The notes under the pieces: generated by a model | Databases searched by the model: none | What the model saw: the letters and a program-made list of their open reading frames with translations, nothing else | What the model was told of the DNA's origin: nothing | Position numbers and translations under genes: made by a program | Part shown: in pieces, positions 12,371 through 56,271 of the stretch | Layout of the letters: each line of letters begins with the position of its first letter | Numbering within the stretch: the first letter of the stretch is position 1 | IMG/VR virus record: IMGVR_UViG_3300026290_000001 | Length of the DNA stretch: 64,000 nt | DNA from: a virus | Reading direction: 5' to 3' (one strand)

Positions 12371-12434
12371 ATATTTACTTTCTTTATAGTATGGTGTATA
12401 ATAAATATATCATATCTATATAGGAGGTTAAATT

Positions 12435-12644
12435 ATGAAAACATATAAAACTGAATCAGGAGAAGAATGGTTATATTTTGATGAATGGTTAGTAGAAAAC
12501 AGTTATTATAAATGGAAAAAACAATATGATATTTTAGCAAGTACGGGGACAGATGAAGAAGAAATAGATAGGATTAAAGACGATTTATTAAAACAATTCT
12601 ATGATTTTTGTGAAGAATATGGGTATGTTGGTCAGGAAGTATAA
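12435..12644 (+). CDS. hypothetical protein
   Basis: RBS TAGGAGG then ATG. Confidence 0.45.
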   Translation: MKTYKTESGEEWLYFDEWLVENSYYKWKKQYDILASTGTDEEEIDRIKDDLLKQFYDFCEEYGYVGQEV

Positions 12645-12668
12645 TTTATAATTTTTGTGTTTTACGAA

Positions 12669-12728
12669 CCCCTAAATAATGGGGTTTGTGAAACCAAAAA
12701 TCATGATAAAACTCATCTTTTGTGTTGA
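12669..12728 (+). promoter_or_regulatory. copy of the repeated intergenic module
   Basis: CCCCTAAATAATGGGG hairpin, AAAAATCATGATAAAAC, TTTTGTGTTGA. Confidence 0.35.
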
Positions 12729-12764
12729 TATTAAAATTTAAATATAAGGAGGTAATATTATTAA

Positions 12765-13517: not shown

Positions 13518-13598
13518 AACAACAAAATAATATTATTGACGTTGTTGACTTTGTTTGTGAAAATTGATATAATTAATAAAAATGTAGGAGGTATATTT

Positions 13599-13859
13599 AT
13601 GGCAGTACGCAGACAAAGGGCAACAACTAGTGCAGAAATAATGGATAAAGATATTAAAATAGTAATTAAAAAATCAAAAGTTCGCTATAGAAGTGTAGAA
13701 TCAAAATCTCATGGTTTTGTTAATGAATTTTGGATTGAAAAAATTGATGATTTATTTTTTTCAGGAGGTAAAATAAGTGAAGAAAGAATTTATCAACATT
13801 GGAAATTCAACTTTGATAAAAATAAGTGGGAGTGTATAGAAGACAAATCTAAAAATTAA
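13599..13859 (+). CDS. hypothetical protein
   Basis: Track ORF 13536..13859; ATG 13599 after TAGGAGG is the likelier start. Confidence 0.45.
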   Translation: MAVRRQRATTSAEIMDKDIKIVIKKSKVRYRSVESKSHGFVNEFWIEKIDDLFFSGGKISEERIYQHWKFNFDKNKWECIEDKSKN

Positions 13860-13878
13860 TTTAATAAGAAAAATACAA

Positions 13879-13940
13879 ATCCCATTATATCGGACTTCAT
13901 TTTTATAAAAATCATGATAAAACTTGTCTTTTGTCATGAT
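13879..13940 (+). promoter_or_regulatory. copy of the repeated intergenic module
   Basis: ATCCCATTATATCGGA, AAAAATCATGATAAAAC, TTTTGTCATGA. Confidence 0.35.
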
Positions 13941-13972
13941 ATTAAAACAAAAATAAATATGGAGGTTAAAAT

Positions 13973-15394
13973 ATAATTAAATTAAATAAGTTTGCATTAG
14001 TACAATTAACTCCAAAAGATATGCGAAGCCAAGATAGTATAAATTTAGGATTAGAAATTATATCTGAAATAGTTAAAAAACAAGGTTGGCAATTAGATAC
14101 ATATAAATTCGGAGATAAAATTCAAGATGTTAATTCATATGATATTATAGGGTTTAGTTTATTCTATTTTACACAAATGTTAAATTTAGTTCCATTCCTA
14201 AAGAGTAATAATATTAAACCATTAAGTAGTAAAAGAAACAATCAACCACTATTATTAGCTGGCGGTCAAGGTATTCAAAATCCTAAACCAATTAGTAAAT
14301 TTATTGATGTATTTTGTATGGGTGAGGGTGAGGGGGTTTTGGAATATATCTTAGAAAATTATAAAAATAAAAATATTTTATCAAACCATAAGTCTTTGTA
14401 TATACCAAATATAAATGATAATTTTATATTCAACTCAATAAAAGATGTTGATTCTAAACCTATAATTTATGGTAAAAATAGCATGATAGAATTAACGAGG
14501 GGATGTAAAAATAGATGTAAGTTTTGTCAGTATGGATGGACAAATGGTAAATATCGAGAAAAAAACATCGAACTAGTAAAACAACAAATATTAGAGGTTA
14601 AAGATAAAGGCATTAAAAATATTAACTTGTTAAGTTGTAATTTGGGTGGTTATTCTAAGATAAATGAAGTTCTTGATTTTTGTATAGAAGAAAATATTAG
14701 ATTAATGAATACCGATATGAGAATTGACGAATATAGTGAAGAAATAGCTATAAAATTAGACCTACTAAAAGTGAGAACTCTAAAAGTTGGAGTAGAAAGC
14801 TTTTCTGATCAAACACGAATTGGTATTAATAAGAATATTTCAAAAATACAATTAGATACTTTTATTGACAGAGCTTTGAAGCATAATATATCAAATTTAC
14901 ATTTTTATTTAATATACGGACTTCCAAACGAAGAAAACTATAATGAATGGTTTAATTATATGGAATACATAAAAAATAGAATAAAATCTGTTGATAGAAA
15001 TATAAGAATTGAATTTAGTATTACTAATTTTGAACCAGCAATATATACACCCTTTGAAAAAAGTCCTTTAATTAATTTCCAAGACAAGCATAAATTTATG
15101 AGAGAATATTTAATAAAACAAGAAGAATTGGGTTATATAAAACAACCCGCACAAACAAAAGATTATAAAAATAGTCATGGAAGATTAGGCAGAAAAGAAC
15201 GAAGTTATAATATTGGAATGTGGTTACTACATGGGGACGAAACTGTAGGGGATGTGTTATATGAATTAAACATTAAAGGAATAGGTAGGAGTATAAATGA
15301 AAAGATTTATAATCAAATTTATAAAATATGCCAATCAAAAACTGATGTTTATCAAATAAGAAACATTCAAGATTTAAATGAAAATATATGGTGA
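13973..15394 (+). CDS. B12-binding-domain radical SAM protein; probable ATA start
   Basis: CX3CX2C radical SAM motif (GCKNRCKFCQ); upstream GEGEG-containing B12-binding-like segment; frame opens at 13970; ATA 13973 is 7 nt after GGAGG; track ATG 14021 has no RBS. Confidence 0.7.
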   Translation: MIKLNKFALVQLTPKDMRSQDSINLGLEIISEIVKKQGWQLDTYKFGDKIQDVNSYDIIGFSLFYFTQMLNLVPFLKSNNIKPLSSKRNNQPLLLAGGQGIQNPKPISKFIDVFCMGEGEGVLEYILENYKNKNILSNHKSLYIPNINDNFIFNSIKDVDSKPIIYGKNSMIELTRGCKNRCKFCQYGWTNGKYREKNIELVKQQILEVKDKGIKNINLLSCNLGGYSKINEVLDFCIEENIRLMNTDMRIDEYSEEIAIKLDLLKVRTLKVGVESFSDQTRIGINKNISKIQLDTFIDRALKHNISNLHFYLIYGLPNEENYNEWFNYMEYIKNRIKSVDRNIRIEFSITNFEPAIYTPFEKSPLINFQDKHKFMREYLIKQEELGYIKQPAQTKDYKNSHGRLGRKERSYNIGMWLLHGDETVGDVLYELNIKGIGRSINEKIYNQIYKICQSKTDVYQIRNIQDLNENIW

Positions 15395-15402
15395 TGTCCA
15401 TG

Positions 15403-15460
15403 CCTATAAATTGGGATTCTCAACACTCAAAAACATGATAAAACTAGTTTTTGGTCATGA
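15403..15460 (+). promoter_or_regulatory. copy of the repeated intergenic module
   Basis: CCTATAAATTGGGATTC, AAAAACATGATAAAAC, TTTTGGTCATGA. Confidence 0.35.
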
Positions 15461-15470
15461 AATTAAATGC

Positions 15471-15499
15471 TTGACAAATATTAATTAAAATAGTAATAT
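15471..15499 (+). promoter_or_regulatory. sigma-70/sigmaA-type promoter upstream of the ligase gene
   Basis: TTGACA (15471-15476), 17-nt spacer, TAATAT (15494-15499); RBS GGGAGGAAGG; ATG 15526. Confidence 0.5.
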
Positions 15500-15525
15500 A
15501 AAGATACTGCGAAGGGAGGAAGGTT

Positions 15526-17397
15526 ATGAGTGAAATAGAAAATCTCAAACAACAATTAGATTACCATGATGATTTGTATTACAATCAAGACGATCCTGAA
15601 TTATCTGATGTGGAATATGATGCTTTAAAACAAGAATATCTTAATTCAGTTAATCAACAAGAATACAACTATATACCTGGGCAAGCACAATTTAAAAAAT
15701 TCACACACACATTCCCTATTAAATCATTGGGGAAAATAAATACTATTGAACAAGCAAGAAAAGAAATTGAAAGGTTATATCCAGTAGTTATTGAACCTAA
15801 ATATGATGGATTAACCTTAGTGTTATATGGTGAAGGGAAAGTAGTAACTAGAGGTAGTGGTCAAATCGGAGAAGATGTTACTGCAAATGCTTCTAGATTT
15901 ATGCGTACTTATAATCCATATGGTTTACCTATTCGTGGCGAAGCAATTATGCCTATATCAGTGTTCCATGAAATTAACAAACAAAGGGATGTAGAAGGTA
16001 AGGAATTATTTAAAAATCCAAGAAATGCAATAGCAGGTATTCTTAGAAATAAAGATAATAGTAATATCCCTAAAGGGTTAAGATTTATTGCTTATGAAAT
16101 CGTAGGATCAGCAGAATCCCATATTCAACAATTATTAGAACTTAAAAAATACTATGATATACCTGAAGCAGATACTATTTGGAATTATAGTGAAATTGAT
16201 GATGCAGTAAAATTCATAGAAAACTTTGATCGTTCTAAATTAGATTATGAAATTGATGGATTAGTTATTAAATCTAATAAGACAAATGCATTAGATATTT
16301 TTGGTGAAACTGAACATCATCCGAACCATAGTGTTGCCTACAAGTTTCCTTCTCAGGGAGAATGGACTGTATTAAAATCTATAACTTGGCAAACTGGTCG
16401 CACGGGCAGAATTACCCCTGTGGCAGAATTGGAACCAGTAGATATTATGGGAAGTACAATCGAACGTGCTACATTGCATAATATAGGGTATATTAGTGGT
16501 TTAGATTTACAGCTATATGATAAGGTGTTTTTAGTGAAAAGTAATGATATTATTCCCGCTGTGATTAAATGTGAGCATACTAAAAATAGTAAACCTATTG
16601 AAATTATAAACAAGTGTCCTTCATGTGGAAGTGAATTAAAAATTATCAATGATCAATTATTCTGTATTAATGATGATTGTTTGGCAAAATTATTATATAG
16701 AACTTCTCATATGGTTAGTCGAGATGCCCTTAATATAGATGGTCTTAGTGAGCAAACCATTTTAAAAATGATTGAAGCAGGATATATTAATAAACCTTGG
16801 GATATATTTGATGTTACTGAAACAGAAATATTAAAATTAGATGGTTTTGCAAAGAAATCTGCCAAAAAAATATATGAAAATATTCAAAATGCAAGAAATT
16901 GTGATTTTGATAGAGCAATTTACGCTTGTGGAATTGAACTGATAGGCAGAAAGGTTAGTAAAGATATTGCAAAAGAATTTGAGACTATTGATAATTTGTT
17001 ATATTGTTTAAGACGTGATGATGCTAGAAGTATATTAGGTATGATTGATGGTATTGGTAATACCACTATAGATAGTTTATTGAATAACGTTAATATTTTA
17101 GAAAATATGGTGGATTATTTAAGTATTAGTAGTGTTGAAAAGAAAGAAACAACTTTTAAATCTCTTGAAAATATTACATTTGTAGTTACCGGAAATGTAG
17201 AAACATTTAAAAACCGTAAAGAGTTAGAAGAATTGATCACTTCTCTTGGTGGTAAGTTAAGTGGATCAGTTTCAAGTAAAACTAATTATTTAATCAACAA
17301 CGATATTACCTCCAATTCTGGTAAGAATAAAAAGGCAAACGAATTAGGGGTAGAAATTATTAGTGAAATACGATTTAATGAAATGATAGGTAGGTAA
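15526..17397 (+). CDS. ligA: NAD-dependent DNA ligase (LigA type)
   Basis: Adenylation motif KYDG (EPKYDGLTL); Cys4 zinc finger (CPSCGSEL…C…C); C-terminal BRCT-like region; 623 aa. Confidence 0.85.
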   Translation: MSEIENLKQQLDYHDDLYYNQDDPELSDVEYDALKQEYLNSVNQQEYNYIPGQAQFKKFTHTFPIKSLGKINTIEQARKEIERLYPVVIEPKYDGLTLVLYGEGKVVTRGSGQIGEDVTANASRFMRTYNPYGLPIRGEAIMPISVFHEINKQRDVEGKELFKNPRNAIAGILRNKDNSNIPKGLRFIAYEIVGSAESHIQQLLELKKYYDIPEADTIWNYSEIDDAVKFIENFDRSKLDYEIDGLVIKSNKTNALDIFGETEHHPNHSVAYKFPSQGEWTVLKSITWQTGRTGRITPVAELEPVDIMGSTIERATLHNIGYISGLDLQLYDKVFLVKSNDIIPAVIKCEHTKNSKPIEIINKCPSCGSELKIINDQLFCINDDCLAKLLYRTSHMVSRDALNIDGLSEQTILKMIEAGYINKPWDIFDVTETEILKLDGFAKKSAKKIYENIQNARNCDFDRAIYACGIELIGRKVSKDIAKEFETIDNLLYCLRRDDARSILGMIDGIGNTTIDSLLNNVNILENMVDYLSISSVEKKETTFKSLENITFVVTGNVETFKNRKELEELITSLGGKLSGSVSSKTNYLINNDITSNSGKNKKANELGVEIISEIRFNEMIGR

Positions 17398-17400
17398 AAT

Positions 17401-17640
17401 ATGAACGATAAAATCTATATTATACCTAGAGAAGATAAACCAATAAAATTCATTATTGAAGAATTACCATGTCCTATCTGTTCACAAATTGGATATGATT
17501 TTAGATGTGAACATGCCAAAAGTAGTTTTAAAGATTTAATATATACAATATCTTGTACTAATTTTAATCATTGTGAAAATGCAGAGAATATATCATTGAA
17601 ATTCAATGAGTTAATACAAGATGAGTTGTTAACCACTTGA
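17401..17640 (+). CDS. hypothetical Cys-rich protein
   Basis: ATG immediately after the ligase stop; CPICSQ…CEH…C. Confidence 0.45.
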   Translation: MNDKIYIIPREDKPIKFIIEELPCPICSQIGYDFRCEHAKSSFKDLIYTISCTNFNHCENAENISLKFNELIQDELLTT

Positions 17641-17950
17641 CAGATTAGTAAAATAAATATATAATAAAATTACAACAAAATATCAAAAATATCAATTTTA
17701 CAAATCCCAATATATAGCCATTCTTGAAGGTGAAAATCAACACCAAATCTGCGTTTTGTCACAACTTTTATGAATGCTAATATACAGGGCTTGAGAATTG
17801 CTATTTTAAGCGAAAATACGGTAAAATCAATGGTTTTAAGTAATTACTAAAATTAGCTTTACATAAAGTCCAATATATAGGCGTTTATAATTCTAAAAAT
17901 CGTGACAAAAGTGTCATTTTGTTTAGAAATTATAGAAAGGGGAATTAAAT

Positions 17951-18136
17951 ATGGATAAAAATTTTTTATTGCTTTGTTCATATGAGAATATGGAAGGAAT
18001 GCTAGAAAGAGATTTTGAATGGTATCAAACAGAAGAAAACATGAGAGAAAGCATTGAAGATAAAAAAGAATTTATAAAAGATTTTACGGTCAATAAAGCA
18101 ATAGAAATATTACAAGTTAGAAATATAGAAATATAA
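17951..18136 (+). CDS. hypothetical protein
   Basis: RBS AAAGGGGAA then ATG. Confidence 0.4.
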   Translation: MDKNFLLLCSYENMEGMLERDFEWYQTEENMRESIEDKKEFIKDFTVNKAIEILQVRNIEI

Positions 18137-18192
18137 TTTAAATAATAAACCTTAGTAATAAAAACATTAAAAGGAGATGAATTATACATAAT

Positions 18193-18951
18193 TTGATTGA
18201 ATTGAATAAAATTTATAATGAAGATTGTATAGGTGGAAGGGGTATGTGTTTAATCCCAAATGAATCAATCGATATGATTTTATGTGATCTTCCGTATGGA
18301 ACTACGATGGCGAAATGGGATAAGATTATCAACCAAGAAGAATTGTGGACGCAGTATAGAAGGATAATTAAACCCAGAGGGGCAATTGTACTAACTTCTA
18401 GTCAGCCATTTTCAAGTGCTTTAATATATAAAAACCTAGACATTTATAGGCATTCATGGGTTTGGGAAAAGAACAATTCTGCAGATTATGCCAATGCAAA
18501 TTGTAGACCAATGAAAATACATGAGGAAGTATTGGTATTTTCATTCGCACATGATGTTGCTCCTGCTAAAGTAAAGATGATTTATAATCCACAGGGGCTA
18601 ATACCAGTTAATAAGCCCAATCGGAGAGGTAGACATAGTGAAACAACAGGTCATTTTAGAGAGAATGAGTACATACAAAAATACACAAACTATCCTACTA
18701 CAATATTGAGGTTTGCTTCAGATAAAGATAAAATTCACTCTACACAAAAACCTGTGGCGTTGTTTGAATATCTTATAGAAACATATAGTAATGAAGGTGA
18801 TTTGGTTTTAGATAATTGTATAGGCTCAGGCACAACAGCGATTGCGTGTATAAACATCAAACGTAAATTTATAGGGTTTGAAAATGACAATACATATTTT
18901 GAGTTAGCAAACAAAAGAATAGAAGAACATAAATGTAAAATAAATATTTGA
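18193..18951 (+). CDS. DNA methyltransferase, beta-class, motif IV variant DLPY
   Basis: TTG start after AAAGGAGA; MILCDLPYGTT; TQKP; DNCIGSGTT. Confidence 0.75.
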   Translation: MIELNKIYNEDCIGGRGMCLIPNESIDMILCDLPYGTTMAKWDKIINQEELWTQYRRIIKPRGAIVLTSSQPFSSALIYKNLDIYRHSWVWEKNNSADYANANCRPMKIHEEVLVFSFAHDVAPAKVKMIYNPQGLIPVNKPNRRGRHSETTGHFRENEYIQKYTNYPTTILRFASDKDKIHSTQKPVALFEYLIETYSNEGDLVLDNCIGSGTTAIACINIKRKFIGFENDNTYFELANKRIEEHKCKINI

Positions 18952-19212
18952 CATTTAACCACAAACAGTATATAATAAAATTACCAGCAATATGCATCAA
19001 AAATATTAAAAATTTGCTTTTTACAAATTCCATTATATAGGTATTTATCAATACCCACAAAGCCCGATATATTGGGATTTTTACAAAAACATTACCAAAA
19101 ACAAATTTGGTCATGATTTTAAATTTGTCTTATATAAATTCAATATATAAGAATTTATTTTAAAATAAATTGCTGAGTTGAAATACGAAAGAAAGGAGGA
19201 AATACATAAAGT

Positions 19213-43346: not shown

Positions 43347-43398
43347 AAGAATTAAAATAGTAATATAAATATATGTTTATATAATAAACATTATTTAA

Positions 43399-43734
43399 GA
43401 TTTAGTTAAATTTAGTTATAGGACAATCATAGGTGTTCATAAGTTTATATGGGAAAATGGTGAACCATATAGACCAAATTATTTAAGTGATTTATTTAAA
43501 AAGACAGTTACTGATAATAATTTACCACCAATAAGACTGCATGATTTAAGACATACATTCGCAAGTGTAGCAAATGAATTAGGAGTTGGATTATATGATA
43601 TTAGCAAAGCATTAGGTCATAGTCAAATAGGTACTACTAGCGAAATATACACACATATGTTTGATAAGACCCATAAGAAAACCATTAGTAAAGTTGCCGA
43701 TGCCTTTAAAGAAACAGAAAAAAATAAGGAATGA
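43399..43734 (+). pseudogene. C-terminal remnant of a tyrosine recombinase (integrase) lacking a start codon
   Basis: In-frame RLHDLRHTFAS … LGHSQIGTTSEIYTH (HxxR … Y catalytic region); frame opens after TAA at 43396 with no ATG/GTG/TTG for a full-length product. Confidence 0.55.
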
Positions 43735-43792
43735 TATTTCTACCATTCCTTACATTCTTTATACATTTTTTAAAGTTATCCACAGGCTACAA

Positions 43793-43853
43793 ATCCCAAT
43801 ATATAGGCATTTGTTTTTCTGAAAATCATGATAAAAACCTTATTTGGTTCAAA
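43793..43853 (+). promoter_or_regulatory. copy of the repeated module in plus orientation with no plus-strand gene downstream
   Basis: ATCCCAATATATAGG, AAAATCATGATAAAAAC, TTTGGTTCAAA; abuts the stop of minus-strand ORF 43857..44216. Confidence 0.3.
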
Positions 43854-43856
43854 TTA

Positions 43857-44216
43857 TTATCTAACTTGTTCTTTCCATGCATTTCCAAATTGCTTTTTCA
43901 ATGTTTTTAAAGACGATTCAATTAAAATTTGAATTTCACTTTCAGTTAAAGCAATACCTTTTTTATTCAACATTTCCGATAAAGCAATAAATGCTTCTCT
44001 ATATTTAGTTTGACCATCAACATCTTTAAAACTCTTTTGAACATATAAAACTGCAAGTCTAGCTAATTCTTGATTAGTCTGAATTTCATGATCAATCTTT
44101 TTAAGATTCTCTATACCTAATTTTTTCTTTAAAAGTGCAATTATAAAATATGAAAAAATCAATCCTATGATATACATAATATTTAAAAATAATTCACTAA
44201 TGATTTGATTATCCAT
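43857..44216 (-). CDS. membrane-anchored protein at the end of the lysis cassette (holin-like)
   Basis: Single N-terminal TM segment then charged domain; directly downstream of the endolysin. Confidence 0.4.
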   Translation of the reverse strand: MDNQIISELFLNIMYIIGLIFSYFIIALLKKKLGIENLKKIDHEIQTNQELARLAVLYVQKSFKDVDGQTKYREAFIALSEMLNKKGIALTESEIQILIESSLKTLKKQFGNAWKEQVR

Positions 44217-44236
44217 ATGTAACCTCCCTCTACCCT

Positions 44237-44953
44237 CTACTTCTTCAATTCTTTAAGTAAATATTCAACGGCATTATCAATTAAAACAGCACATTCTATT
44301 CGTGTAATACTACTATTAGGATCTAAAATCCCATCGCCTTTACCAGAAAGTATTTTCTTCTCATATAATCTATCTGCACTTTTTGCTCCCCAATGATCTT
44401 TAGGCAAGTCTTTAAAATACTTTGACATTTCTTCAATCACCTTACCTTTCAACAATTCCTTCTGAACTTCATTTTTAAATTTATCCCATGTCCAACCTAA
44501 ATGACCTGCTCTTATTAAACGTGGACAATTTTTTCCATTCCAATCCCAATGCTGTCTTAATGATTCTACATTTTTATTTTTAGATTTTAATAATTCTGCC
44601 ACAAGTAAAACTGCATTTTCTAATGTTTTTTGGTAATTCCCACTTTCACATATTTCAATTCCTATACTACGTCTATTACCAGCACCACTTCCTCCATCTC
44701 CTGCGTGCCAAGCATTTTCAAATAAAGGAATACATTCAATTGCTTGTTTTTCATCAATGGCAATATGATAACCTGTAGAAGATGTATTTGAAGGATTGGT
44801 TAAATAATCTCTTTCATTTCTTGCAGTAGATTTTGAATTCCCTGTGTTGTGAATAGTAATATATTCCCAATCCATTTTATATTTTGGACGTTTATTAGAA
44901 TTCATAGGAATGTGATCTATTACATAAGGAAAAGGTAAATTAAATTTACTCAT
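44237..44953 (-). CDS. endolysin: N-acetylmuramoyl-L-alanine amidase (Amidase_2/PGRP) with C-terminal SLH-like domain
   Basis: ITIHNTGN … HIAIDE … AWHAGDG … CPRL; C-terminal GKGDGILDPNSSITRIECAVL. Confidence 0.8.
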   Translation of the reverse strand: MSKFNLPFPYVIDHIPMNSNKRPKYKMDWEYITIHNTGNSKSTARNERDYLTNPSNTSSTGYHIAIDEKQAIECIPLFENAWHAGDGGSGAGNRRSIGIEICESGNYQKTLENAVLLVAELLKSKNKNVESLRQHWDWNGKNCPRLIRAGHLGWTWDKFKNEVQKELLKGKVIEEMSKYFKDLPKDHWGAKSADRLYEKKILSGKGDGILDPNSSITRIECAVLIDNAVEYLLKELKK

Positions 44954-45217
44954 TTATTTTTCACCACCTTTAACTAATCTCTCAATAAAGTCCGTTCCAG
45001 CATATCCAACGGTAATAAAAACTATCATTATCAACTTGCTTGTTTCAACACCTAGTAAGGCAATAGCAGTTATAGTCCCAATAGCACAACTTACCAATAA
45101 ACTTATAAATATTTGAGGTAAACTTTTATTGTTATTTACAACCATTCGTAAGACTTGACCTGCCATTCCTAAGATTGCACCTAGCAAAATAAATGATTGA
45201 ACTTCAAAAATATTCAA
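44954..45217 (-). CDS. holin
   Basis: 87 aa, two to three TM segments, charged C-terminus, immediately upstream of the endolysin. Confidence 0.55.
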   Translation of the reverse strand: MNIFEVQSFILLGAILGMAGQVLRMVVNNNKSLPQIFISLLVSCAIGTITAIALLGVETSKLIMIVFITVGYAGTDFIERLVKGGEK

Positions 45218-45239
45218 TTTACCACCTCAGAATTAAAAA

Positions 45240-45536
45240 TTAAATACTAGGAATATTGTCATTATCATCCAAAGTATTTATATCATTTATATTATTACTA
45301 TAATCAGGTTTATCAGGCCAAGTATTATGTTTACTTAAATTTTCAAATAATGATTTTACACAATAAATTAATGTCACTCCGATTATTTGAATGACGATTT
45401 TTTCTGAAAGATTTTCAGCAATTTGTTCTCTTCCTAGAAAGGCCAATAAATAAGAAAGATAAACCCAAATTACGCTGTTAATCATTAATAAATAAACTAT
45501 TCTTTTGCTAAATTCATCTATGTTAAATATTTTCAT
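45240..45536 (-). CDS. hypothetical membrane protein
   Basis: Hydrophobic segments. Confidence 0.4.
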   Translation of the reverse strand: MKIFNIDEFSKRIVYLLMINSVIWVYLSYLLAFLGREQIAENLSEKIVIQIIGVTLIYCVKSLFENLSKHNTWPDKPDYSNNINDINTLDDNDNIPSI

Positions 45537-45547
45537 AACTCACCTTC

Positions 45548-45772
45548 TCACAAACGTATTTGTTGATGACAACTTGGACAATGTTCAATAGGTGAAGCAG
45601 GATAAGTTATTATATAATAAATAACCCATAAAATTACTAATAACCAAAACAATGGAGAACGAATAATAGTTGATAATATATTCCAAACTAAAAACAAGAT
45701 ACCTTGAATAAAAGATGTAGTTATATCTGTTATGTTATTAAAAAATATATCTACTTTGTTTTTATATTTCAT
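45548..45772 (-). CDS. hypothetical membrane protein
   Basis: Two TM segments; C-terminal CPSCH. Confidence 0.4.
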   Translation of the reverse strand: MKYKNKVDIFFNNITDITTSFIQGILFLVWNILSTIIRSPLFWLLVILWVIYYIITYPASPIEHCPSCHQQIRL

Positions 45773-45779
45773 AATCTAC

Positions 45780-46361
45780 CTACTTTAAAACCATACTTAT
45801 CACTGCACCAAATCCCATAGACATTGCAATTATAAATAAATTCTTTAAAATATCTGATAATTTTATTTTATTATCACCACTTACTTCATCAATCTTCTTG
45901 CTTAATTTCTCCACACTAACTTCTGTACTGTTCATTCTATTGCTTAGTACGTCTAATGAATTACTGATCTTCGCTTGATTTTCACTAATTTCAGCAATCA
46001 ATTTATCTCTTTTAATTCCGTCTTCTCTCTGTAATTTTGTGAGCAATTGGAGTTCGGACAAAACACTTGTAATATCATATATTTTGTTTGTTTGGCTTTC
46101 CAAATCATCTATACGGTGATTTGCCACCTTTATTTTTTCATCAACATTCTTAAATACTTCGGCACAAATTTTTGGTTGTTCACATTCTTGATTTATGACC
46201 AATTCACAACACCATCCAATCTTTGTATTCATTCCTCCTTTGCGGTATAATGGGTACAAGGTAATTAATTTGACCGCAAAATTAATTACCATAACGAATA
46301 AGGCAGGATACCTATTTTTATCCTGCCTTATTTTTATTTTATTAAATTTAAAAAATCTCAA
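45780..46361 (-). CDS. coiled-coil protein with C-terminal membrane anchor
   Basis: Heptad-rich middle; C-terminal hydrophobic IIAMSMGFGAVISMVL. Confidence 0.45.
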   Translation of the reverse strand: MRFFKFNKIKIRQDKNRYPALFVMVINFAVKLITLYPLYRKGGMNTKIGWCCELVINQECEQPKICAEVFKNVDEKIKVANHRIDDLESQTNKIYDITSVLSELQLLTKLQREDGIKRDKLIAEISENQAKISNSLDVLSNRMNSTEVSVEKLSKKIDEVSGDNKIKLSDILKNLFIIAMSMGFGAVISMVLK

Positions 46362-46377
46362 AAAATCATTTTTAAGA

Positions 46378-46442
46378 ATCCCAATATATAGGGATTTCTA
46401 AACCCGAAAATTTGAACCAAATTAAAGATTTGTTATGATACA
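46378..46442 (-). promoter_or_regulatory. copy of the repeated module in minus orientation upstream of 45780..46361
   Basis: ATCCCAATATATAGGGAT hairpin and TTTGAACCAAA (reverse complement of TTTGGTTCAAA). Confidence 0.3.
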
Positions 46443-46456
46443 AAATAAAAACATAA

Positions 46457-47461
46457 TTATTGATAGAAATATTGAGTATAACTTTGTTGCTTGTGTTCAA
46501 ACGTTTGTTTTGCGTAAATGCCCGTAGTTTGAATATCATCATGACCTAAAAGTTCTTGTAATACCGACATTGGACAACCGTTATTTAGCATCAAGGTTGC
46601 GAAAGTATGTCTGAGCATATGGGGATGAGTTCTCTTGTCAAGCCCTGCACGTTTACCTATTGCTGCTATTTCTCGTTGAATACCTCGATTGCTTAATCTT
46701 CTATATTCCTGCCGTTCTGTTACAAATAATGCTTCACAGTCATCCTTACGACTTTCAAGATATTTTTTAAGGTAAATTGCAGCTCTAGCAGAATAGAATA
46801 CAATTCGCTCTTTGTTTCCTTTGCCTAATACCTTAATCGTCCGATTTGATTGTCCTATATCATCTTTATTTAGTGCCGATATTTCAGATAATCGACAACC
46901 TGTTGAATACATAATTTCAGTTAATGCTTTTTCTCGCAAAGTGAAACAACTTTCACGGAATAGTTCCAATTCTTCAATTGTTAATGCCTTTGCCATTGCT
47001 TTTCCCACTTTATAAGGTTTAATTCTAATCATCGGATTTTCTTCAATAATCTGTTCCTCACAAAGCCATTCAAAGAAACTGCGAAGTACTGAGCGAATTG
47101 TCTCAACAGTACTTTTAGCATTTACTGTTGGGTCGCTTTCCCGATCATCCAGATAGTTAATTATGTCCTGCTTGGTTATTTCATTTACTGGTTTTTCTTC
47201 GGTTCTATCGGTAAATATTTTAAGATGAAGTCGATAATTATCAATAGTTATTGGACTTAATCCTTGCCGTTTTTTATCCTTCAAAAACAGTTTTATGTTT
47301 TTCCGCAAATTATAATATTCTGGATCGCTGTTTTGTTTTATAACTCTGTATTCATCAAGAATGGAGGCTAATTGATTTTTAGCCTCCATCTTATTCATGC
47401 CTTTTTCTATGATTCCATCTACAATTTTAGCATATAGCTCATAATTGAGATTAGGGTGCAT
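46457..47461 (-). CDS. tyrosine site-specific recombinase (integrase), XerC/D-like
   Basis: Catalytic signature RLSE … HPHMLRHTFAT … LGHDDIQTTGIYA; 334 aa. Confidence 0.85.
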   Translation of the reverse strand: MHPNLNYELYAKIVDGIIEKGMNKMEAKNQLASILDEYRVIKQNSDPEYYNLRKNIKLFLKDKKRQGLSPITIDNYRLHLKIFTDRTEEKPVNEITKQDIINYLDDRESDPTVNAKSTVETIRSVLRSFFEWLCEEQIIEENPMIRIKPYKVGKAMAKALTIEELELFRESCFTLREKALTEIMYSTGCRLSEISALNKDDIGQSNRTIKVLGKGNKERIVFYSARAAIYLKKYLESRKDDCEALFVTERQEYRRLSNRGIQREIAAIGKRAGLDKRTHPHMLRHTFATLMLNNGCPMSVLQELLGHDDIQTTGIYAKQTFEHKQQSYTQYFYQ

Positions 47462-47729
47462 AGAATACCTCCTTTTATTTAGTTGTTACTGAAGGTTCAT
47501 AGTCTACTGCGAAGTAACTTCTTAATACACATTTGCGAAGTCAGAAAACTTTTTAACCAATATCAAACAACCCCGACAATTTCTCTAACTTTTTCCCTAT
47601 ACATATTAGGCACAAAATCAATTATAATTCGCCCACTTTCTACTGCATATACCCACATTCCTAATATAGCTTCACTCATATCATTCATCTCCTTTTAGAT
47701 TAAACAATTCGGTTCTTAACATATCGATT

Positions 47730-47962
47730 TCAGCCATCATCAAAGTGAGTAGAAGTGCTATTCCTTCTGCATCTTCGTTGAAAGCCAACTTCGATATAGT
47801 CATTCTTGTTGAACACTTGCTCATCATATTCCCAACCACTAAACCCCTTCATGGCGTCAATATCTTCTTCCTCAATTCGCACTATATTCGTCCGAACATA
47901 GACTGTATCAGCATTCACTTCAATGGGCTTAACTGTTTCCTGTGTCCCTCTTATTCTCACGC
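47730..47962 (-). CDS. small hypothetical protein
   Basis: GTG 47960 after AAAGAGGTGA; composition differs from the flanking AT-rich DNA. Confidence 0.3.
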
Positions 47963-48035
47963 TTTATCACCTCTTTATAGTATTTTCCTTGATAGGCTTC
48001 TATTCGACCCATTCGACCAATTACCACTGTTATTA

Positions 48036-49187
48036 TTAAAAATACACGAGGCGAGCGCCGATAACCGAATACTTTTCAGACTCCGAATAACCCACATGCA
48101 GCCGAAACGCCCCCGCCTTATCCGCAGCCGACCAATCACCACCGAAACGCGGCAAGCGCGAAACATTCAGAACCGCGGAATCGGGATAATGCGTGCTTTC
48201 GCTTCCGTTTGCTGTTTTGACGATAAAACCCGTTTCCGTACCACCTTGTATGTCGTCTATGTAACCGACTATATTCGTTGTCGCACCCTGTCCGTAATTT
48301 GTATATCCAGAACCAATATCGTTAAAACTTTCATTGCCGATTAGGATGTTTCGGTCTGCATCACTAAATAATCCGTCAATCCAATAGTAAATATTACCCC
48401 AAAAATCTTCTATGCCACAAAATTTTAATTGTTGTTTTCCTGTAGTTTCACCATAGAACATACCTTTAGCATTTGTAGCACCCGTATTAACTTTGGCACT
48501 ATTCCCATCGACATAACCTCTGCCTAAAGCAGTTTGCCAATCCCTACTCTTAAACATCACCGTACCTAAGACTTGCAACATTAAAAGTTGAAAATAAGCC
48601 ATTTGGTCATAACCACTGCCATTCGCCTGTGCAATAGTTCTAAATGCACCGATAGTTTCATAAGCGGTTGTTATTTTTCCGCTTAAACTTCTTAATTTAG
48701 AACCGTCAGAATATCCTAAATAAGCTGAAATGTAACACTTGGCTTTTTCGGTTGTACCCCTCATATGTGCTAAACATTTATACCCACTATCTACCTTTGC
48801 ATTAGCATATCTTACATACAAGTCAGTCCCAATGGTTTCAAATTTCCACCAAATCTTAGGAAATTCAATCATTACGTCACCATCTGCACCACTTGTAATG
48901 TCTGCATTTGTCCCGTCAATTTTTTTAGTATAATCGTTTGGATTTAGATAGTATTGCACCACTCCATTTTTAAGTAAACATGGTTTAATCTGATTAAATG
49001 GAAACTTGTCTTGCCAACTACCATAAGAAAAATTGCCATTATTTCCTTGGGCTGGAGTAAAACCTATTGCATTATCTGTATAGGCTAAAGCAGTTTCGGG
49101 GTTGCTATTTGTAGTATCAATTTTGATGCCATATATTTTAGGTGGTGATTTTACTGGTTTTCTTTTCCTAATTAATGCCTCACCCAT
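48036..49187 (-). CDS. tail fibre / receptor-binding protein with compositionally distinct (GC-rich) C-terminal domain
   Basis: 383 aa, Gly/Ser/Thr/Asn-rich; last ~100 codons (48040-48330) are 50-60% GC. Confidence 0.5.
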   Translation of the reverse strand: MGEALIRKRKPVKSPPKIYGIKIDTTNSNPETALAYTDNAIGFTPAQGNNGNFSYGSWQDKFPFNQIKPCLLKNGVVQYYLNPNDYTKKIDGTNADITSGADGDVMIEFPKIWWKFETIGTDLYVRYANAKVDSGYKCLAHMRGTTEKAKCYISAYLGYSDGSKLRSLSGKITTAYETIGAFRTIAQANGSGYDQMAYFQLLMLQVLGTVMFKSRDWQTALGRGYVDGNSAKVNTGATNAKGMFYGETTGKQQLKFCGIEDFWGNIYYWIDGLFSDADRNILIGNESFNDIGSGYTNYGQGATTNIVGYIDDIQGGTETGFIVKTANGSESTHYPDSAVLNVSRLPRFGGDWSAADKAGAFRLHVGYSESEKYSVIGARLVYF

Positions 49188-50030
49188 TTACCTCACCACC
49201 TTTAGCTGAATTGGCAAACTAACTTCAGGTTTATCCATCGCATATAATGTTATAGAATTATTAGCAGTTGTTACACGATAAATTTTACCCCACTCATTTA
49301 CTCGTTCTTTATCTGTAGCAAATGTGCCACTCATTACTACGTCAACTATAGGATTGTCATTTGACGATATTCCAGTTACCGTTTGCGTTTTCGTATATGG
49401 GGCTTCTGTACCTGTCCAAGTAGTATCAAGTGTTGTCGTAAGCGTAGCGTGATATACGTGTCCTAATTTACTTATTGTCGCACCATCTGCCAGATGGTTA
49501 GCAAACTTTTTCCCAACCCCACTAACCAAAGGTCTTTTATCGACAATTATATTTACAGTTTTATCCGCATTTGTACTAATAGTACCAATTAATAGACTTC
49601 CATCTGTAATTGTTCCATCTATACTACTAGCAAAATTTCCATCATTTTTAAGATATATAGTATAGGTTATACTGGCCGATACTGGATTAATAGTAAAAGT
49701 TGTATCAGATGTTTTAGTTATAGTATTTATTGTATTTCCACTAAATGTTTCACCAGTACCACTAGCAATAACTATACTTAATGTATCTGTACCACTCGTA
49801 TAAAATGCAGATTTTATTCTAAATGGACTATCCAATTCTAATGAATTTAATAAAAATCTCGCATCTTTCCATGTTGCTCCTAAATCTCTAGGATCAGTAC
49901 CACCTAAAGTAACATTTGCATCATCAGCAACATGGATAATATCTAAACCACTATATTTATTTCTAATTTCTGCTACTTGCTCATCTGTATGTATAGCAAA
50001 TACTTTGCTATTTTTAATTACACAAATCAT
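49188..50030 (-). CDS. tail fibre protein sharing a module with the upstream tailspike
   Basis: Thr/Ser/Asn-rich; ~110-aa segment (TLSIVIASGTGETF…ISTNADK…DKRPLVS) paralogous to 50050..51813. Confidence 0.5.
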   Translation of the reverse strand: MICVIKNSKVFAIHTDEQVAEIRNKYSGLDIIHVADDANVTLGGTDPRDLGATWKDARFLLNSLELDSPFRIKSAFYTSGTDTLSIVIASGTGETFSGNTINTITKTSDTTFTINPVSASITYTIYLKNDGNFASSIDGTITDGSLLIGTISTNADKTVNIIVDKRPLVSGVGKKFANHLADGATISKLGHVYHATLTTTLDTTWTGTEAPYTKTQTVTGISSNDNPIVDVVMSGTFATDKERVNEWGKIYRVTTANNSITLYAMDKPEVSLPIQLKVVR

Positions 50031-50049: not shown

Positions 50050-51813
50050 TTACACTATTATCCATGAACCTTTATTTCCCTCAGAATTAGGTTCAGGAGA
50101 GAAAATAGGACTGCCACTATAATTAGAACAACGTACATATCCATTGTTATATGCAAATATATCAATTAAACCTGCATCACCAACATTAGAATTTGAAGCA
50201 AATAAAGAACCTTCTTCACAACAATCTATATTGTATTCCACATTGTTTTTTGCAATAATTCCCGAACTAAATCCTTTTCCACCATTATTAACTGTTAATC
50301 CTGATTTATTTCCACAAACACATATATTTTCTGCCATCATACCCCCACCAGTAGAATCATAAGCACCTTTTTCAGAATTACCATTTGCTATACAATTATT
50401 TATATAAATCCCTGCGAAATTGGAACATTCATAACCATTTTCATTATTGGAAGATGCTGTATATGGTGCAGTAATACCTGCTCTGTTAGTTACAAAAAAA
50501 CCAGATTTAAAACCAGATACTCCAACATTTGTACCACAAGTTATGCTTGCGCCTGTTGTTGATAATATTCCATAATTAGTACTAGCATTAGAACCAATAA
50601 TTGCAACATTATTTAATAATCCTAATTCAGAACGGTCAGCAACAATACCATTACAATTTGTAAATTTTAACGTTGTAGTTAAAACAACAAAATCTCCACC
50701 CGTTAATGCAACAGCAGGGAATGGAGTACCTTGAAAAGTATTTTTAACCGTTACTACGTTTCCATTTATATTTATAATTTCATACATTCCACGTAAAACT
50801 TCATGATTACCTGTGCCTGTAGTATTTTTTATAATAGCATATTGTCCTACTTGCATACCTACTGCACTAGCAACTGTTATAGGTACAGACCAATTTCCAG
50901 CAGTATCAGAAACACTACCTACGTTTGAAACGGTTGTGGCAATAGGAGTAGCACCAATTATTCTTATATTAGAACCATTAACATGATTTATTTTAAGTTG
51001 AGAAGTATGTTCATACATTTCTGTTAATAAAGAAATAGTTACAGTAGTTGAACTAGTTATACTAGCAGTTTTTATACTATCTAAAGCATTTGGTATTGTA
51101 GTAAAATCACATCCAGTAGAGCCAACAGTTATAGTTTTATTGGCATCTATAATAGTATCTGTTAAATGTTTAATAAATTCACTACCTACAGCACTAACTA
51201 AAGGTCTTTTATCAGTAATTGTATTTATAGATTTATCTGCATTGGTACTAATTGTTCCTATTAAAATACTTCCATTTGGAATACTACCATTTGTACTTTT
51301 ATCAAAATTACCATCATTCTTTAAATAAATATTATAGGTCACGCTAGCACTTACTGGATTAATATTAAAAGTAGTATCAGATGTTTTTGTAATAGTGTTT
51401 AAAGTAGTACTATTAAAACTTTCACCTGAACCCGAAGTAATTATTATTGATAAAGTATCTGTTACTGAATTATATTCAGCAGATTTTATCTGAAACGGAT
51501 ACCCATATACATCTTCTACATTACTTTTTAAACTATCATGATCATATGCTGTAAATAATCTTCCTATTATCGTTCCATTACTCCATGTCTGTGCTGTCCC
51601 TTGAAATCCCCTAGTTACACCAACCAAACTACTACCACTTTTATCTGTATATAAAATAGTTTCTGCATTATTACCAGTTCCTATAGTAGCAAGATTAGGT
51701 GCATTGGGAAAAACTGAAATATCAGTTACGGGGATGGTAGTTGCAATACTATTTATATCAGAAGAAAGTGTTGTAAGAGGGGAGTTAATTTTAGCATTAT
51801 ACATTGTTTCCAT
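50050..51813 (-). CDS. tailspike/tail fibre with beta-helix-like Gly/Asn-rich repeats (possible depolymerase)
   Basis: 587 aa; C-terminal half rich in short N/G/S/V repeats typical of right-handed beta-helix. Confidence 0.5.
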   Translation of the reverse strand: METMYNAKINSPLTTLSSDINSIATTIPVTDISVFPNAPNLATIGTGNNAETILYTDKSGSSLVGVTRGFQGTAQTWSNGTIIGRLFTAYDHDSLKSNVEDVYGYPFQIKSAEYNSVTDTLSIIITSGSGESFNSTTLNTITKTSDTTFNINPVSASVTYNIYLKNDGNFDKSTNGSIPNGSILIGTISTNADKSINTITDKRPLVSAVGSEFIKHLTDTIIDANKTITVGSTGCDFTTIPNALDSIKTASITSSTTVTISLLTEMYEHTSQLKINHVNGSNIRIIGATPIATTVSNVGSVSDTAGNWSVPITVASAVGMQVGQYAIIKNTTGTGNHEVLRGMYEIININGNVVTVKNTFQGTPFPAVALTGGDFVVLTTTLKFTNCNGIVADRSELGLLNNVAIIGSNASTNYGILSTTGASITCGTNVGVSGFKSGFFVTNRAGITAPYTASSNNENGYECSNFAGIYINNCIANGNSEKGAYDSTGGGMMAENICVCGNKSGLTVNNGGKGFSSGIIAKNNVEYNIDCCEEGSLFASNSNVGDAGLIDIFAYNNGYVRCSNYSGSPIFSPEPNSEGNKGSWIIV

Positions 51814-54448: not shown

Positions 54449-55741
54449 TCAGTCATGAGATGAATTGGCTCTGTTCTGTTCATATATAATCCATGATTTT
54501 CTTGCATTAATTCTTTGCATGTTAGATATTTTCGGTGTCTTCATACCTCTGGGTGCATTACTAAAATCTATTTTTTCACCATCTATACCCATAAGAATGG
54601 CATAACCCGTAGACATTCTACCTTTAATAAAATATTCATTACCTATATACCTTACTTTATCAAACTTCCTAAATCCTTCTATTTTACCTGTAGGTATCTT
54701 CTGATGACTTCTTACTCCTTTTGCCTGTTGGTAATCGCCTTTAGGGATACACTTTTTTAATACAGCTTTTTCAGTTTTAAAGCTTACATCAATTAACCCT
54801 ATATCTTCAATATTATTTAAACAGGCAATAGCTACAGCATCGTAGTAATGCTCTTTTGGTAATCCCATTAGCTGTCTATGTTCTTTGGTAATAAATCCAA
54901 AGGTTTCTTTTGCATTTGGTAGCTGTCTTAATAATTGTTGTCTTATACTATTCATCTGTGTTGTGTGTTTTAATTGTCCTTTAATTTTACCATTCTTCTT
55001 TAATTTAATTCCTCCTTTGTGCAAACTATTATGACAAGTTTTACAAAGTGTAATTAAATTTTCTGCATCATCTGAGCCACCATTTTTTCTAAAAACTATA
55101 TGATGTACCTCTAATCTGCTGTCTTTACTTTTTCCTTTGCAATACTGGCAAATATATTTATCTCTACTTAATACATAAGCTTTAGTATTAGCAAATCCAT
55201 AATTAGTTCCTTTTTGATAAAGCCATTTATTACTTAATACTGCTGGATTTTTTAAAGCATGTGGGTCAAATGTTGCTGTTTCTATTATTATATTTGTAAT
55301 GGGCATTATTGATTTTGCAAAATCAATTTCTTTTAAGTGTGAATTAATTTTACTTGTCATTGTAGGAGAAAATCTATCTTTTTTAATGCTGTTTTTCCTA
55401 TTATTAAATCTAGGTTCCCTATATCTAGTTTTCCTATTCCTTCTAGTTCTCCTATATTTAGCTCTTTTGTCCATTTTGTCAGATATATCATTTCTAATTT
55501 CTACTTCTGATATATAATACACTTCATTTTCGTCATTTGCTACTGCACTTCCTATTTTACTACTACCAGTATCAATTCCTAAAGTTAAATCTTGTGTATA
55601 GTCTGTAGCATGATATAGTAATTTAATTGTAAATGGAGTTCTTCTTATGCATTTTGCTTTACCATCTTTTAACAATAATCTTGCTATTGCTGGTTTACAA
55701 GGCATTAAAGGACTCCCATCTTCATTAATTACATAAACCAT
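54449..55741 (-). CDS. iscB: IscB, OMEGA-family RNA-guided endonuclease (PLMP domain, split RuvC, HNH)
   Basis: PLMP (EDGSPLMPCKPAIARLLLKDGKAK); RuvC-I LGIDTGSSKIGSAV; RuvC-II IIIETATFD; HNH CQYCKG…HHIVFRKNGGSDDAENLITLCKTCH; RuvC-III PKEHYYDAVAIAC; 430 aa; RBS AAAGGA. Confidence 0.8.
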   Translation of the reverse strand: MVYVINEDGSPLMPCKPAIARLLLKDGKAKCIRRTPFTIKLLYHATDYTQDLTLGIDTGSSKIGSAVANDENEVYYISEVEIRNDISDKMDKRAKYRRTRRNRKTRYREPRFNNRKNSIKKDRFSPTMTSKINSHLKEIDFAKSIMPITNIIIETATFDPHALKNPAVLSNKWLYQKGTNYGFANTKAYVLSRDKYICQYCKGKSKDSRLEVHHIVFRKNGGSDDAENLITLCKTCHNSLHKGGIKLKKNGKIKGQLKHTTQMNSIRQQLLRQLPNAKETFGFITKEHRQLMGLPKEHYYDAVAIACLNNIEDIGLIDVSFKTEKAVLKKCIPKGDYQQAKGVRSHQKIPTGKIEGFRKFDKVRYIGNEYFIKGRMSTGYAILMGIDGEKIDFSNAPRGMKTPKISNMQRINARKSWIIYEQNRANSSHD

Positions 55742-56025
55742 AAAATCAAATCCTTTCGGATAAATACTCTGCTTAAAAGCAGGTTATGCGTATCTATATA
55801 CTATTACCATATATAGAATTCGTCCTCATCTCGACAATGATAAAATAGCTTATATGTATATCACACCGAGCCTTACCCTCCAACTCTACTTAGTGATATA
55901 CGATAGAGCAATGGTCTGATGCGTCAACCAAAGGTATCATAACTATTCTATCGTAGTATAAATTTCTCTATACTAAGTCTGGTGAACTTAGACTTTAGAA
56001 GCCTCCGACTTTAGTCGGGGGTAGT
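55742..56025 (-). ncRNA. candidate omegaRNA of the IscB locus
   Basis: ~280-nt non-coding stretch directly 5' of iscB; GC well above surroundings; nested inverted repeats (GTGAACT…CCGACTTTAGTCGG…AGTTCAC at 55982-56030; GTATATCAC/GTGATATAC; CTGCTTAAAAGCAG). Confidence 0.4.
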
Positions 56026-56271
56026 TCACTCTATTTCAGGATTGATAGATAAATCATCTTTGCTTGTACTATTTACATTAGATAAATTATCTTCATTGGA
56101 CAAATCATCATTAATAATTTGACTTAATTCGTCTATTTTAGAACTTAATTTGATAATCTCTATCTGATACATATTATTTTGTAAACATAAAGTGACTACA
56201 TCTAAGGGCAAATTACTATTGTTTATTAACTCTGCCAGTTTAATATTAAAATCACTTATAATAAAAATCAC
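56026..56271 (-). CDS. hypothetical protein
   Basis: 81-aa ORF; overlapping plus-strand ORF 56192..56539 is hydrophobic low-complexity and less plausible. Confidence 0.35.
   Translation of the reverse strand: MIFIISDFNIKLAELINNSNLPLDVVTLCLQNNMYQIEIIKLSSKIDELSQIINDDLSNEDNLSNVNSTSKDDLSINPEIE

Follow-up and report, generated by a model that had tools for sequence, protein, structure and literature searches.

A start-less integrase remnant at the early-late junction of an uncharacterised phage: probable leftover of an ssrA-targeting integration module

We have investigated a 3′ fragment of a tyrosine integrase gene (43450..43734, + strand) in a 64,000-nucleotide (nt) stretch of viral DNA, IMG/VR record IMGVR_UViG_3300026290_000001, referred to here as the window, by comparison with described integration systems and with related genomes and contigs designated by L numbers. 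Bacillota phages and conjugative transposons carrying modules of the Tn916/Tn1549 Int type target the 3′ ends of tRNA and transfer-messenger RNA (tmRNA) genes, and one relative of the window, L020, shares with them a helix-turn-helix (HTH) excisionase-like gene, arm repeats and an ssrA core. In contrast, the window holds only the last 94 codons of the integrase gene (int) and lacks the excisionase-like gene (xis), the phage attachment site (attP), the Arg-I and Lys residues and a start codon, and there is thus no working member of such a module there. Analogues of this situation are Lactobacillus phage LL-H compared with mv4, and Streptococcus thermophilus phage Sfi19 compared with Sfi21. In the lytically propagated S. 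thermophilus phage TP-778L, int is present only in truncated form (PMC3952083); like the window, this phage combines temperate ancestry with possession of only a piece of int, the complete gene being found in a close relative or prophage. During excision of TP-778L, a complete int recombined with a truncated one to give its truncation, whereas the window shows a microhomology deletion in which xis and attP were also lost and, unlike TP-778L, is accompanied by at least four independent lesions coexisting in related environmental phages.

A second, intact tyrosine recombinase gene (46457-47461, − strand) lies between the tail-fibre and lysis genes of the window and is co-oriented with the late genes. 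This resembles Tyrovirus gp50, a tyrosine recombinase within the structural module of large Bacillota phages, the location of which was called 'curious' and the function of which was left open (PMC9703825). gp50 is, however, located between neck and tape-measure genes with a proposed dif-like site just downstream, while no such site is established in the window. SPbeta-like large temperate phages possess a large serine integrase, SprA (PMC4191935). The window resembles these phages in a genome of ~135 kb, a YorF-family gene, many DNA methyltransferases and nucleotide-metabolism genes, and its relatives L152 and L164 carry a large serine recombinase adjoining the lysis genes; it differs in that its lineage used a tyrosine integrase at this locus, now lost, and in showing no nucleotide similarity to isolated phages. 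The observations presented below make it very probable that the fragment is the leftover of a recent ~1.5-kb deletion of an ssrA-targeting xis-attP-int module. Stub formation of this type is a known kind of event, ordinary decay, observed here in an uncharacterised phage.

The integrase remnant and its deletion junction

The window has a G+C content of 28%, with + strand genes up to 43.3 kb and − strand genes from 43.86 kb on, the early (+) and late (−) genes meeting convergently at ~43.8 kb. The early block encodes many DNA methyltransferases, NrdD, a dUTPase, a dNMP kinase, an NT5C nucleotidase and a YorF-family protein, and the late block encodes tail proteins and a lysis cassette. Two IMG/VR contigs (64.9 and 99.6 kb) match the window at 99.98% identity, beyond which no further contig of this phage was detected in the IMG/VR scan. 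Co-linearity with 135-138 kb contigs from several other samples indicates a genome size of ~135 kb; the gene content given here covers 64 kb of this genome, ~71 kb lying outside the window. Searching 42.8-48.1 kb against 50,697 phage records at the nucleotide level returned zero matches. The window comes from an uncharacterised, uncultured phage group of ~135 kb, the source assemblies of which include fermentation metagenomes.

The open frame at 43399-43734 (+ strand) comprises 111 codons and matches positions 97-170 of the 172 positions of the Pfam Phage_integrase model PF00589 (E 1.2e-11; 45.1 bits, cut-off 27.1), in agreement with the first-pass annotation of this DNA, which had recognised a start-less C-terminal integrase fragment here. 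Its sole in-frame ATG, GTG or TTG is ATG 43657, which would yield only 24 amino acids (aa), and a scan of 43399-43734 detected neither a start nor a ribosome-binding site (RBS) in frame before codon 87. Only 43450-43731 is derived from the integrase, codons 43399-43449 being in frame by chance and originating from non-coding DNA that once lay before the lost excisionase gene. The remnant itself (43450..43734) consists of residues 290-383 and the stop codon without a start codon. It retains the HxxR, His and Tyr nucleophile residues in the motifs HDLRH, GHS and IYTH and lacks Arg-I (LGLRREE), the beta-hairpin Lys (KNTSS in the L020 integrase, Int) and the whole N-terminal half. The complete catalytic set (Arg-I, Lys, His-x-x-Arg, His/Trp, Tyr) is therefore absent, and the remnant is not a translatable gene with start codon, RBS and N-terminal DNA-binding domains. 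Neither a counterpart of the integrase N-terminal region (Pfam SAM_3-type in the L009 and L010 alleles) nor a copy of the N-terminal 289 residues or of xis was found elsewhere in the 64-kb window, and a split gene rejoined by rearrangement was rejected for this reason. Judged from its sequence, the stub is apparently an untranslatable, catalytically incomplete 3′ piece. It is a routine pseudogene remnant which annotators can safely label as an integrase remnant, and presumably has no function.

The database proteins closest to the stub are all short. A class of 'mini-integrases' with a common cut point was considered and rejected, as the upstream frames show differing truncation points, a nonsense codon and contig ends; gene callers start the short homologous open reading frames (ORFs) at a conserved internal Met.

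The left flank of the remnant (43347..43449, + strand) is what remains of a non-coding leader located ahead of the excisionase-like (HTH_17) gene in relatives. Its alignment with L008, L009 and L012 (~93% identity) extends up to window position 43450, past which these relatives continue TGAGGTG... into the leader of xis. Left-flank homology stops at 43450 and right-flank homology to L020 begins at 43449, the junction string being AAGTTTATAT joined to GGGAAAATGG with two bases common to both sides. At this junction (43449..43450), which thus exhibits a 2-nt microhomology (AT), xis, attP and int codons 1-289 are gone. The deletion measures 1,374 nt in L009 coordinates and, when the ~100-nt internal gap of L009 itself is added, ~1.5 kb.

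A chimeric join or collapsed repeat at 43.3-43.9 kb would be in keeping with the metagenomic source and with an AT-rich region containing repeated intergenic modules. The exact junction string, however, occurs in L001/2/6/7, L105-108 and L149-151, representing five samples and assemblies produced by different assemblers, on contigs spanning 65-138 kb, among them those of 135-138 kb and both IMG/VR contigs. This identity among the assemblies of five samples excludes misassembly. In addition, the junction is outside any repeat, and other deletion alleles are likewise present in several samples. The probability of an assembly artefact is accordingly negligible.

The intact allele is represented by L020, a close relative recovered in a metagenome scan using an alignment of the fragment family as query, which has an uninterrupted 383-aa integrase gene at the same locus. 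Its gene order is NT5C, xis, attP in a 400-nt spacer, full-length int, a copy of a repeated intergenic module described below, and convergent holin and amidase genes. Residues 290-383 of L020 Int and the stub are 100% identical in protein sequence, with 1 synonymous difference in 286 nt, and the L020 holin and amidase are 98% and 93% identical in aa sequence to those of the window. L021 (99.3% identity) also reads across the breakpoint position into int. The near identity of the stub to the intact allele is explained by the deletion being recent. Among solved structures, Tn1549 Int (6EMY, E 1e-12) is most closely related to L020 Int. L020 Int has a Phage_int_SAM_3-type N-terminal region, which in its relatives P0050, P0051 and P0053 is accompanied by the AP2-like integrase N-terminal domain PF14657. 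The proposal that an older integrase had been decapitated by rearrangement or module exchange thus stands in part: the synteny with L020 confirms that the fragment is the remnant of a once-complete gene and refutes only the rearrangement, as a simple ~1.5-kb deletion is sufficient.

The xis-int spacer of both L020 and L009 contains five TAGGTAGACA(T) arm-type repeats, two in tandem followed, after ~230 nt, by three more; repeats spaced in two groups are the usual layout of arm-type integrase sites. Between the two groups sits the core, GTTCGACTCCCCCCGCCTCCACCA. This 24-mer was found in >120 genomes by exact-match scan and is the exact 3′ end of ARAGORN-called tmRNA (ssrA) genes in L168 and L174, which indicates that the ancestral module integrated at ssrA, a classic integration target. 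Naming the host from the core was rejected, since the 24-nt tmRNA end is common to many phyla. An Rfam scan of L020 and L009 returned nothing, because the attP core is just a 24-nt piece of tmRNA. The HTH_17 excisionase-like gene is present next to int in L008, L009, L012 and L020, and no match to it was found anywhere in the window; a T-arm-like motif was not found at 43-48 kb and the window has no recognisable attP. The region 47462-48035, put forward by the first-pass annotation for an attP search, contains small tail-associated ORFs and no tRNA-like motif, the real attP with its ssrA-type core residing in the deleted segment. Directly after the ssrA-like attP core (L020 1742-1766 and the L009 equivalent) comes AAGTCCTAAATATAGGGATTTAG, a sequence similar to the palindrome found in the repeated module. 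This likeness may be a coincidence in AT-rich DNA, or the module palindrome may be derived from, or mimic, the sequence after host ssrA.

Phages integrating into genes often carry the 3′ end of their target. On this model, the stub would derive from the 3′ end of an integrase gene of the host or of a resident element, copied into the phage beside attP and restoring the target on integration, and close homologues of the stub do occur as fragments in non-phage contexts (L016-L018, with AbiEii and a relaxase). Those fragments, however, are cut at other positions, and L020 and other relatives have the complete gene at the locus with their own upstream attP, which targets ssrA and not an integrase gene. 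A copied target has next to no chance of being the explanation and is already refuted by L020. Separately, a same-family integrase of 76% identity is truncated at ~residue 257 in L016-L018 and L031, from groundwater and other metagenomes, the L016-L018 fragments being located beside AbiEii/DUF6088 and relaxase genes, and the representative in Ruminiclostridium sufflavum DSM 19573 is broken into ORFs of 215 and 143 aa. Disrupted copies are therefore common in this integrase family.

In the history which we favour, deletion of the integration module, the ancestral early block would have ended in a standard integration module as seen in L020, with the order excisionase-like HTH gene, ~400-nt attP and 383-aa Tn916/Tn1549-like tyrosine integrase. 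One illegitimate-recombination deletion (~1.5 kb, 2-nt microhomology) would then have taken the excisionase gene, attP and integrase codons 1-289, and the phage would presumably no longer be able to integrate at ssrA. Several points weigh against this history. With 64 of ~135 kb read, the rest of the genome may encode a further system for integration or maintenance, and as a consequence the inability to lysogenise can only be inferred. L020 is mosaic, its NT5C being just 69% identical to that of the window, and is a close relative on the right-hand side, not the literal ancestor. Every lesion found, in four events, spares at least the last 85 codons, for which chance or a terminator constraint could account; a function of the 3′ stub retains a small probability.

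Recurrent lesions at the lysogeny locus

The lesions are distributed among relatives with common synteny. L008, L009-L011 and L012-L015 all exhibit dNMP kinase, NT5C, the HTH_17 excisionase-like gene, integrase pieces, and convergent holin and amidase genes, the amount of the integrase gene which is kept differing among them. In L009-L011, ~100 nt including the LGLRREE Arg-I box are missing, with a frameshift; in L012-L015 and L030 a deletion extends from the spacer to int residue 228, L027 being the intact counterpart; and in L008 the deletion extends from the spacer to residue 296, xis being kept. The window deletion extends from upstream of xis to residue 289. Microhomologies, which were read out directly at the window and L008 junctions, are 2 nt and 4 nt, respectively. 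The window keeps codons lost in L008 and L008 keeps the xis gene lost in the window, indicating that the two deletions were independent. The other deletion alleles, like that of the window, are found in several samples. The terminal holin of L009 differs, and in L152 a 511-aa large serine recombinase adjoins the same terminator, module copy and holin. Thus, the early/late convergent junction serves this phage group as its lysogeny locus, an evolutionarily unstable one. L152, a sister phage (contig JBINOH010000398.1 of GCA_043956585.1; region 1825-3575), encodes a 98-aa lysis protein identical to that of the window. Its serine recombinase gene, co-oriented with the lysis genes, replaces the tyrosine-integrase module, and of the tyrosine int ORF no more than the terminal ~18 nt, the terminator part, are retained.

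The terminator referred to is a hairpin followed by a T-run (43724..43753, − strand) which was detected by terminator scan and overlaps the int stop codon; from its sequence and position, the 43753-43724 hairpin is likely to act as intrinsic terminator for the late/lysis operon. Its conservation covers the window, L008, L012 and L020 and extends even to L152, where int was replaced. This conserved overlap with the int stop codon is probably the reason why the extreme int 3′ end persists.

Persistence of the 3′ end could also reflect selection if the stub acted as a mini-protein or regulatory element, such as an immunity factor or a DNA-binding fragment with a dominant-negative effect. In all truncated relatives the frame is open across at least the last 85 codons, third-position changes dominate among diverged copies (25 of 45 differences in the comparison with L012), and catalytically inactive recombinase-like repressors, MrpR/YopR, are known from SPbeta-type phages (PMC10516654). 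A retained function of this kind is nevertheless highly improbable. The window frame has no in-frame start or RBS before codon 87, and the stubs begin at different residues (215, 228, 290 and 296), their short ORFs starting at an internal Met or at ATGs created by the junctions. The existence of near-identical intact counterparts (L020 and L027) suggests that the signal of purifying selection was inherited from the intact gene. Furthermore, neither the SAM_3-type core-binding nor the AP2-like arm-binding region of the intact N-terminus is present in the stub.

The lysis cassette and the Xer-like recombinase

The lysis cassette occupies 43857-46232 on the − strand and encodes a holin, an endolysin and four small proteins, at least some of which are membrane proteins by sequence. 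The last gene (43857..44216) encodes a holin of the LL-H type (PF09682, E 9e-14; phrog_608), and 44237..44953 an endolysin consisting of an N-acetylmuramoyl-L-alanine amidase (PF01510, E 2e-19) and an SLH cell-wall-binding domain (PF00395, E 7e-8). A small membrane protein with a weak holin/antiholin match is encoded at 44954..45217 (phrog_126, E 8.5e-4; PF16083, E 3e-3, below cut-off), and two small predicted membrane proteins of 98 and 74 aa were identified from the ORF list at 45240..45772. Neither of the latter has a significant family match in Pfam or PHROG, and the 98-aa protein is identical in 24 contigs. The first gene of the cassette (45780..46232) encodes 150 aa from an RBS-bearing ATG at 46232, preceded by AAAGGAGGA. 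Its product is largely polar with a hydrophobic C-terminal segment, as read from the sequence, and has weak family matches only; an exact-sequence look-up gave no record. The first-pass description of a − strand lysis cassette is thus correct, the designation of the cassette as inverted is not: its convergent orientation relative to int is the same in relatives with the intact gene, and its strand is that of the late block.

Upstream of the cassette, 46457..47461 (− strand) encodes a 334-aa XerC/D-like tyrosine recombinase with SAM-like and catalytic domains (E 3e-41; PF13495, PF02899 and PF00589). It aligns with XerA (4A8E) and XerD (1A0P) and possesses every catalytic motif, those aligned to XerA 4A8E being GCRLSE, GKGNKER, HMLRH, LGHDD and GIYAK, so that its earlier description as intact holds. 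The broad Xer-like NCBIfam model NF040815 is passed (229.7 bits, cut-off 220), while the curated cut-offs for XerC (217.8 vs 335), XerD (199.5 vs 330) and the integron integrase TIGR02249 (95.9 vs 265) are failed. The recombinase is 23% identical to L020 Int, indicating that it is not a paralogous copy of the remnant, for which it is at most a putative replacement.

Homologues are found in the same slot, between tail-fibre and holin/endolysin genes, in Clostridium phage phiCp-D (37% identity), in Terrisporobacter phage TPELB_ph1 (36%), where another convergent 'integrase' follows the endolysin, and in contig L164 (54%), in which a large serine recombinase is present. Two of these three also carry a separate integrase. 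The intact gene is an unrelated XerC/D-like recombinase in a recurrent late-region position of other Bacillota phages, and might conceivably support an alternative form of lysogeny, either by integration elsewhere or by resolving multimers of a plasmid prophage. Control of tail-fibre inversion or a shufflon by the Xer-like enzyme was considered and rejected, as credible inverted repeats around the tail-fibre genes and a second copy of the conserved −51 leader of the recombinase were both not found in the window.

The recombinase gene is preceded by a 51-nt leader including the RBS (47462..47512, − strand) which travels with it. Together, 46457-47512 forms a gapless block, 86% identical in the 44%-GC siphophage contigs L100-L104, and four different upstream contexts join this block at the same nucleotide. 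In L100-L104, an unrelated phage, its neighbours are Dit on one flank and, on the other, variable genes of the tail-fibre, XkdW-like and XkdX-like types; among three variants of this phage, sequence differences run right up to the unit and cease at its first base. On the left, the variable region of L100, L101 and L104 ends in ordinary homology within the fibre gene. In the window, the block is followed at 47563..49187 on the − strand by two short tail-associated ORFs of 41 and 76 aa and by the gene for a tail protein of 383 aa (phrog_1382, phrog_18126 and phrog_5302). Third-codon-position G+C (GC3) in 46457-49187, comprising the recombinase, the two small ORFs and the 383-aa tail protein, is 0.24-0.39 compared with ~0.13-0.21 in most neighbours, which suggests that the block from recombinase to tail protein was acquired horizontally. 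A fixed linkage of recombinase and 383-aa tail protein was rejected, as relatives of the tail protein at 59-70% identity have no recombinase nearby. The 64.9-kb IMG/VR contig stops at window position 49328, just past the 46457-49187 block and close to a 300-nt direct repeat of 75% identity (49485-49784 / 51157-51456) in tail-fibre genes. Elsewhere in the late/structural region, an IscB-type element is present at 54449-56029 (− strand), with a HEARO (omega) RNA at 55819-56029 (Rfam RF02033, 121.7 bits, E 1e-24) directly followed by a 430-aa ORF with RRXRR and HNH domains.

These features bear on the first-pass interpretation of the locus as a recombination scar, in which an inversion or module exchange brought in the lysis cassette together with a new recombinase and beheaded the resident integrase. 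Two + oriented module copies do bracket the lysis cassette, the raised GC3 of 46457-49187 and the 86% identity to a gene of a 44%-GC phage indicate that exchange happened on that side, and the differing terminal holin of L009 and the serine recombinase of L152 show that the locus is mosaic among relatives. In L020, however, intact int lies beside the same module copy, holin and amidase in the same orientation, from which it follows that the cassette predates the truncation. Moreover, the truncation breakpoint is 400 nt from the cassette, and both of its flanks are native sequence seen in relatives. A scar of this type is already largely refuted, and we regard it as very unlikely.

Intergenic module copies

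Twelve copies of a ~75-nt intergenic module, all in + orientation, were observed at window 4300-19130 and at 43787-43858 and 46371-46443. The module consists of a palindrome, AATCCC-N8-GGGATT, followed by AAAAATCA and a second, variable inverted repeat. Its palindromic core has 13 matches in the window compared with 0.03 expected. Most early-region copies end just ahead of the RBS of the next gene, within ~15 nt, and several of the genes following a module are paralogous DNA methyltransferases which have been duplicated along with the downstream module. Presence/absence polymorphism of cassettes at the early-region module borders was not seen, the genomes compared all being near-identical and thus uninformative. 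A role as a conserved RNA structure was rejected on the basis of the RNAalifold result (−0.47 kcal/mol, 2 pairs, no covariation) and the lack of a matching Rfam family. Likewise, the module was rejected as a sigma-70 promoter, since a consensus scan showed no excess of sites (34 vs 33.7 expected) and the module end is within ~15 nt of the RBS.

A profile (nhmmer) built solely from 10 early-region copies detects both late-region copies on the + strand. The first (43787..43858; 45.4 bits, E 4e-13, vs 16 bits on the − strand) abuts the holin stop codon and has no + strand gene behind it, in accordance with the first-pass observation of such a copy. A copy of this type is present in L008, L020, L021 and L152 and absent in L012 and L009. 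Its occurrence beside intact int (L020) and beside the serine recombinase (L152) indicates that it is independent of the deletion, and it cannot be counted as part of a scar as had been assumed. The second copy (46371..46443) scores 31.8 bits on the + strand vs 20.4 bits on the − strand, the − strand scores of 16-20 bits covering the palindrome only. It contains AATCCCAATATATAGGGATT (46377-46396), the only perfect module palindrome in the window, which on the − strand lies 58 nt past the recombinase stop codon with a T-rich stretch a few bases beyond. Between the two late-region copies, a strong hairpin with a T-run on the + strand only (46296..46333; 15 pairs by scan, including the 14-bp perfect inverted repeat I21) forms a terminator-like site pointing against the late genes.

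The palindromes could be conceived of as tyrosine-recombinase core sites acted on by the Xer-like enzyme in a phage-borne, integron-like shuffling of cassettes. The palindrome AATCCC-N8-GGGATT resembles the architecture of such core sites, with two inverted arms and an 8-bp AT spacer, and the sole perfect copy is 58 nt downstream of the Xer-like gene. At that place the phiCp-D, TPELB_ph1 and L164 homologues, in contrast to the perfect 6-8-6 palindrome of the window, are followed by plain, ordinary intrinsic terminators. The lysis cassette as a whole is flanked by two copies in direct orientation, and a further ten lie between methyltransferase and other early genes. If true, the Xer-like enzyme would excise or exchange gene cassettes at module sites; we consider this very unlikely. 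In a milder variant, the two + oriented copies and the terminator at 46296-46333 might define early antisense transcripts over the lysis genes.

For annotation, deletion of the integration module has a direct consequence: an 'integrase' hit alone is no ground for calling this phage temperate, as the only intact recombinase is of the late-operon, Xer-like type. Within the phage group, the ssrA-targeting module has been knocked out at least four separate times by different deletions, and this recurrent loss suggests repeated shifts away from integration at ssrA.

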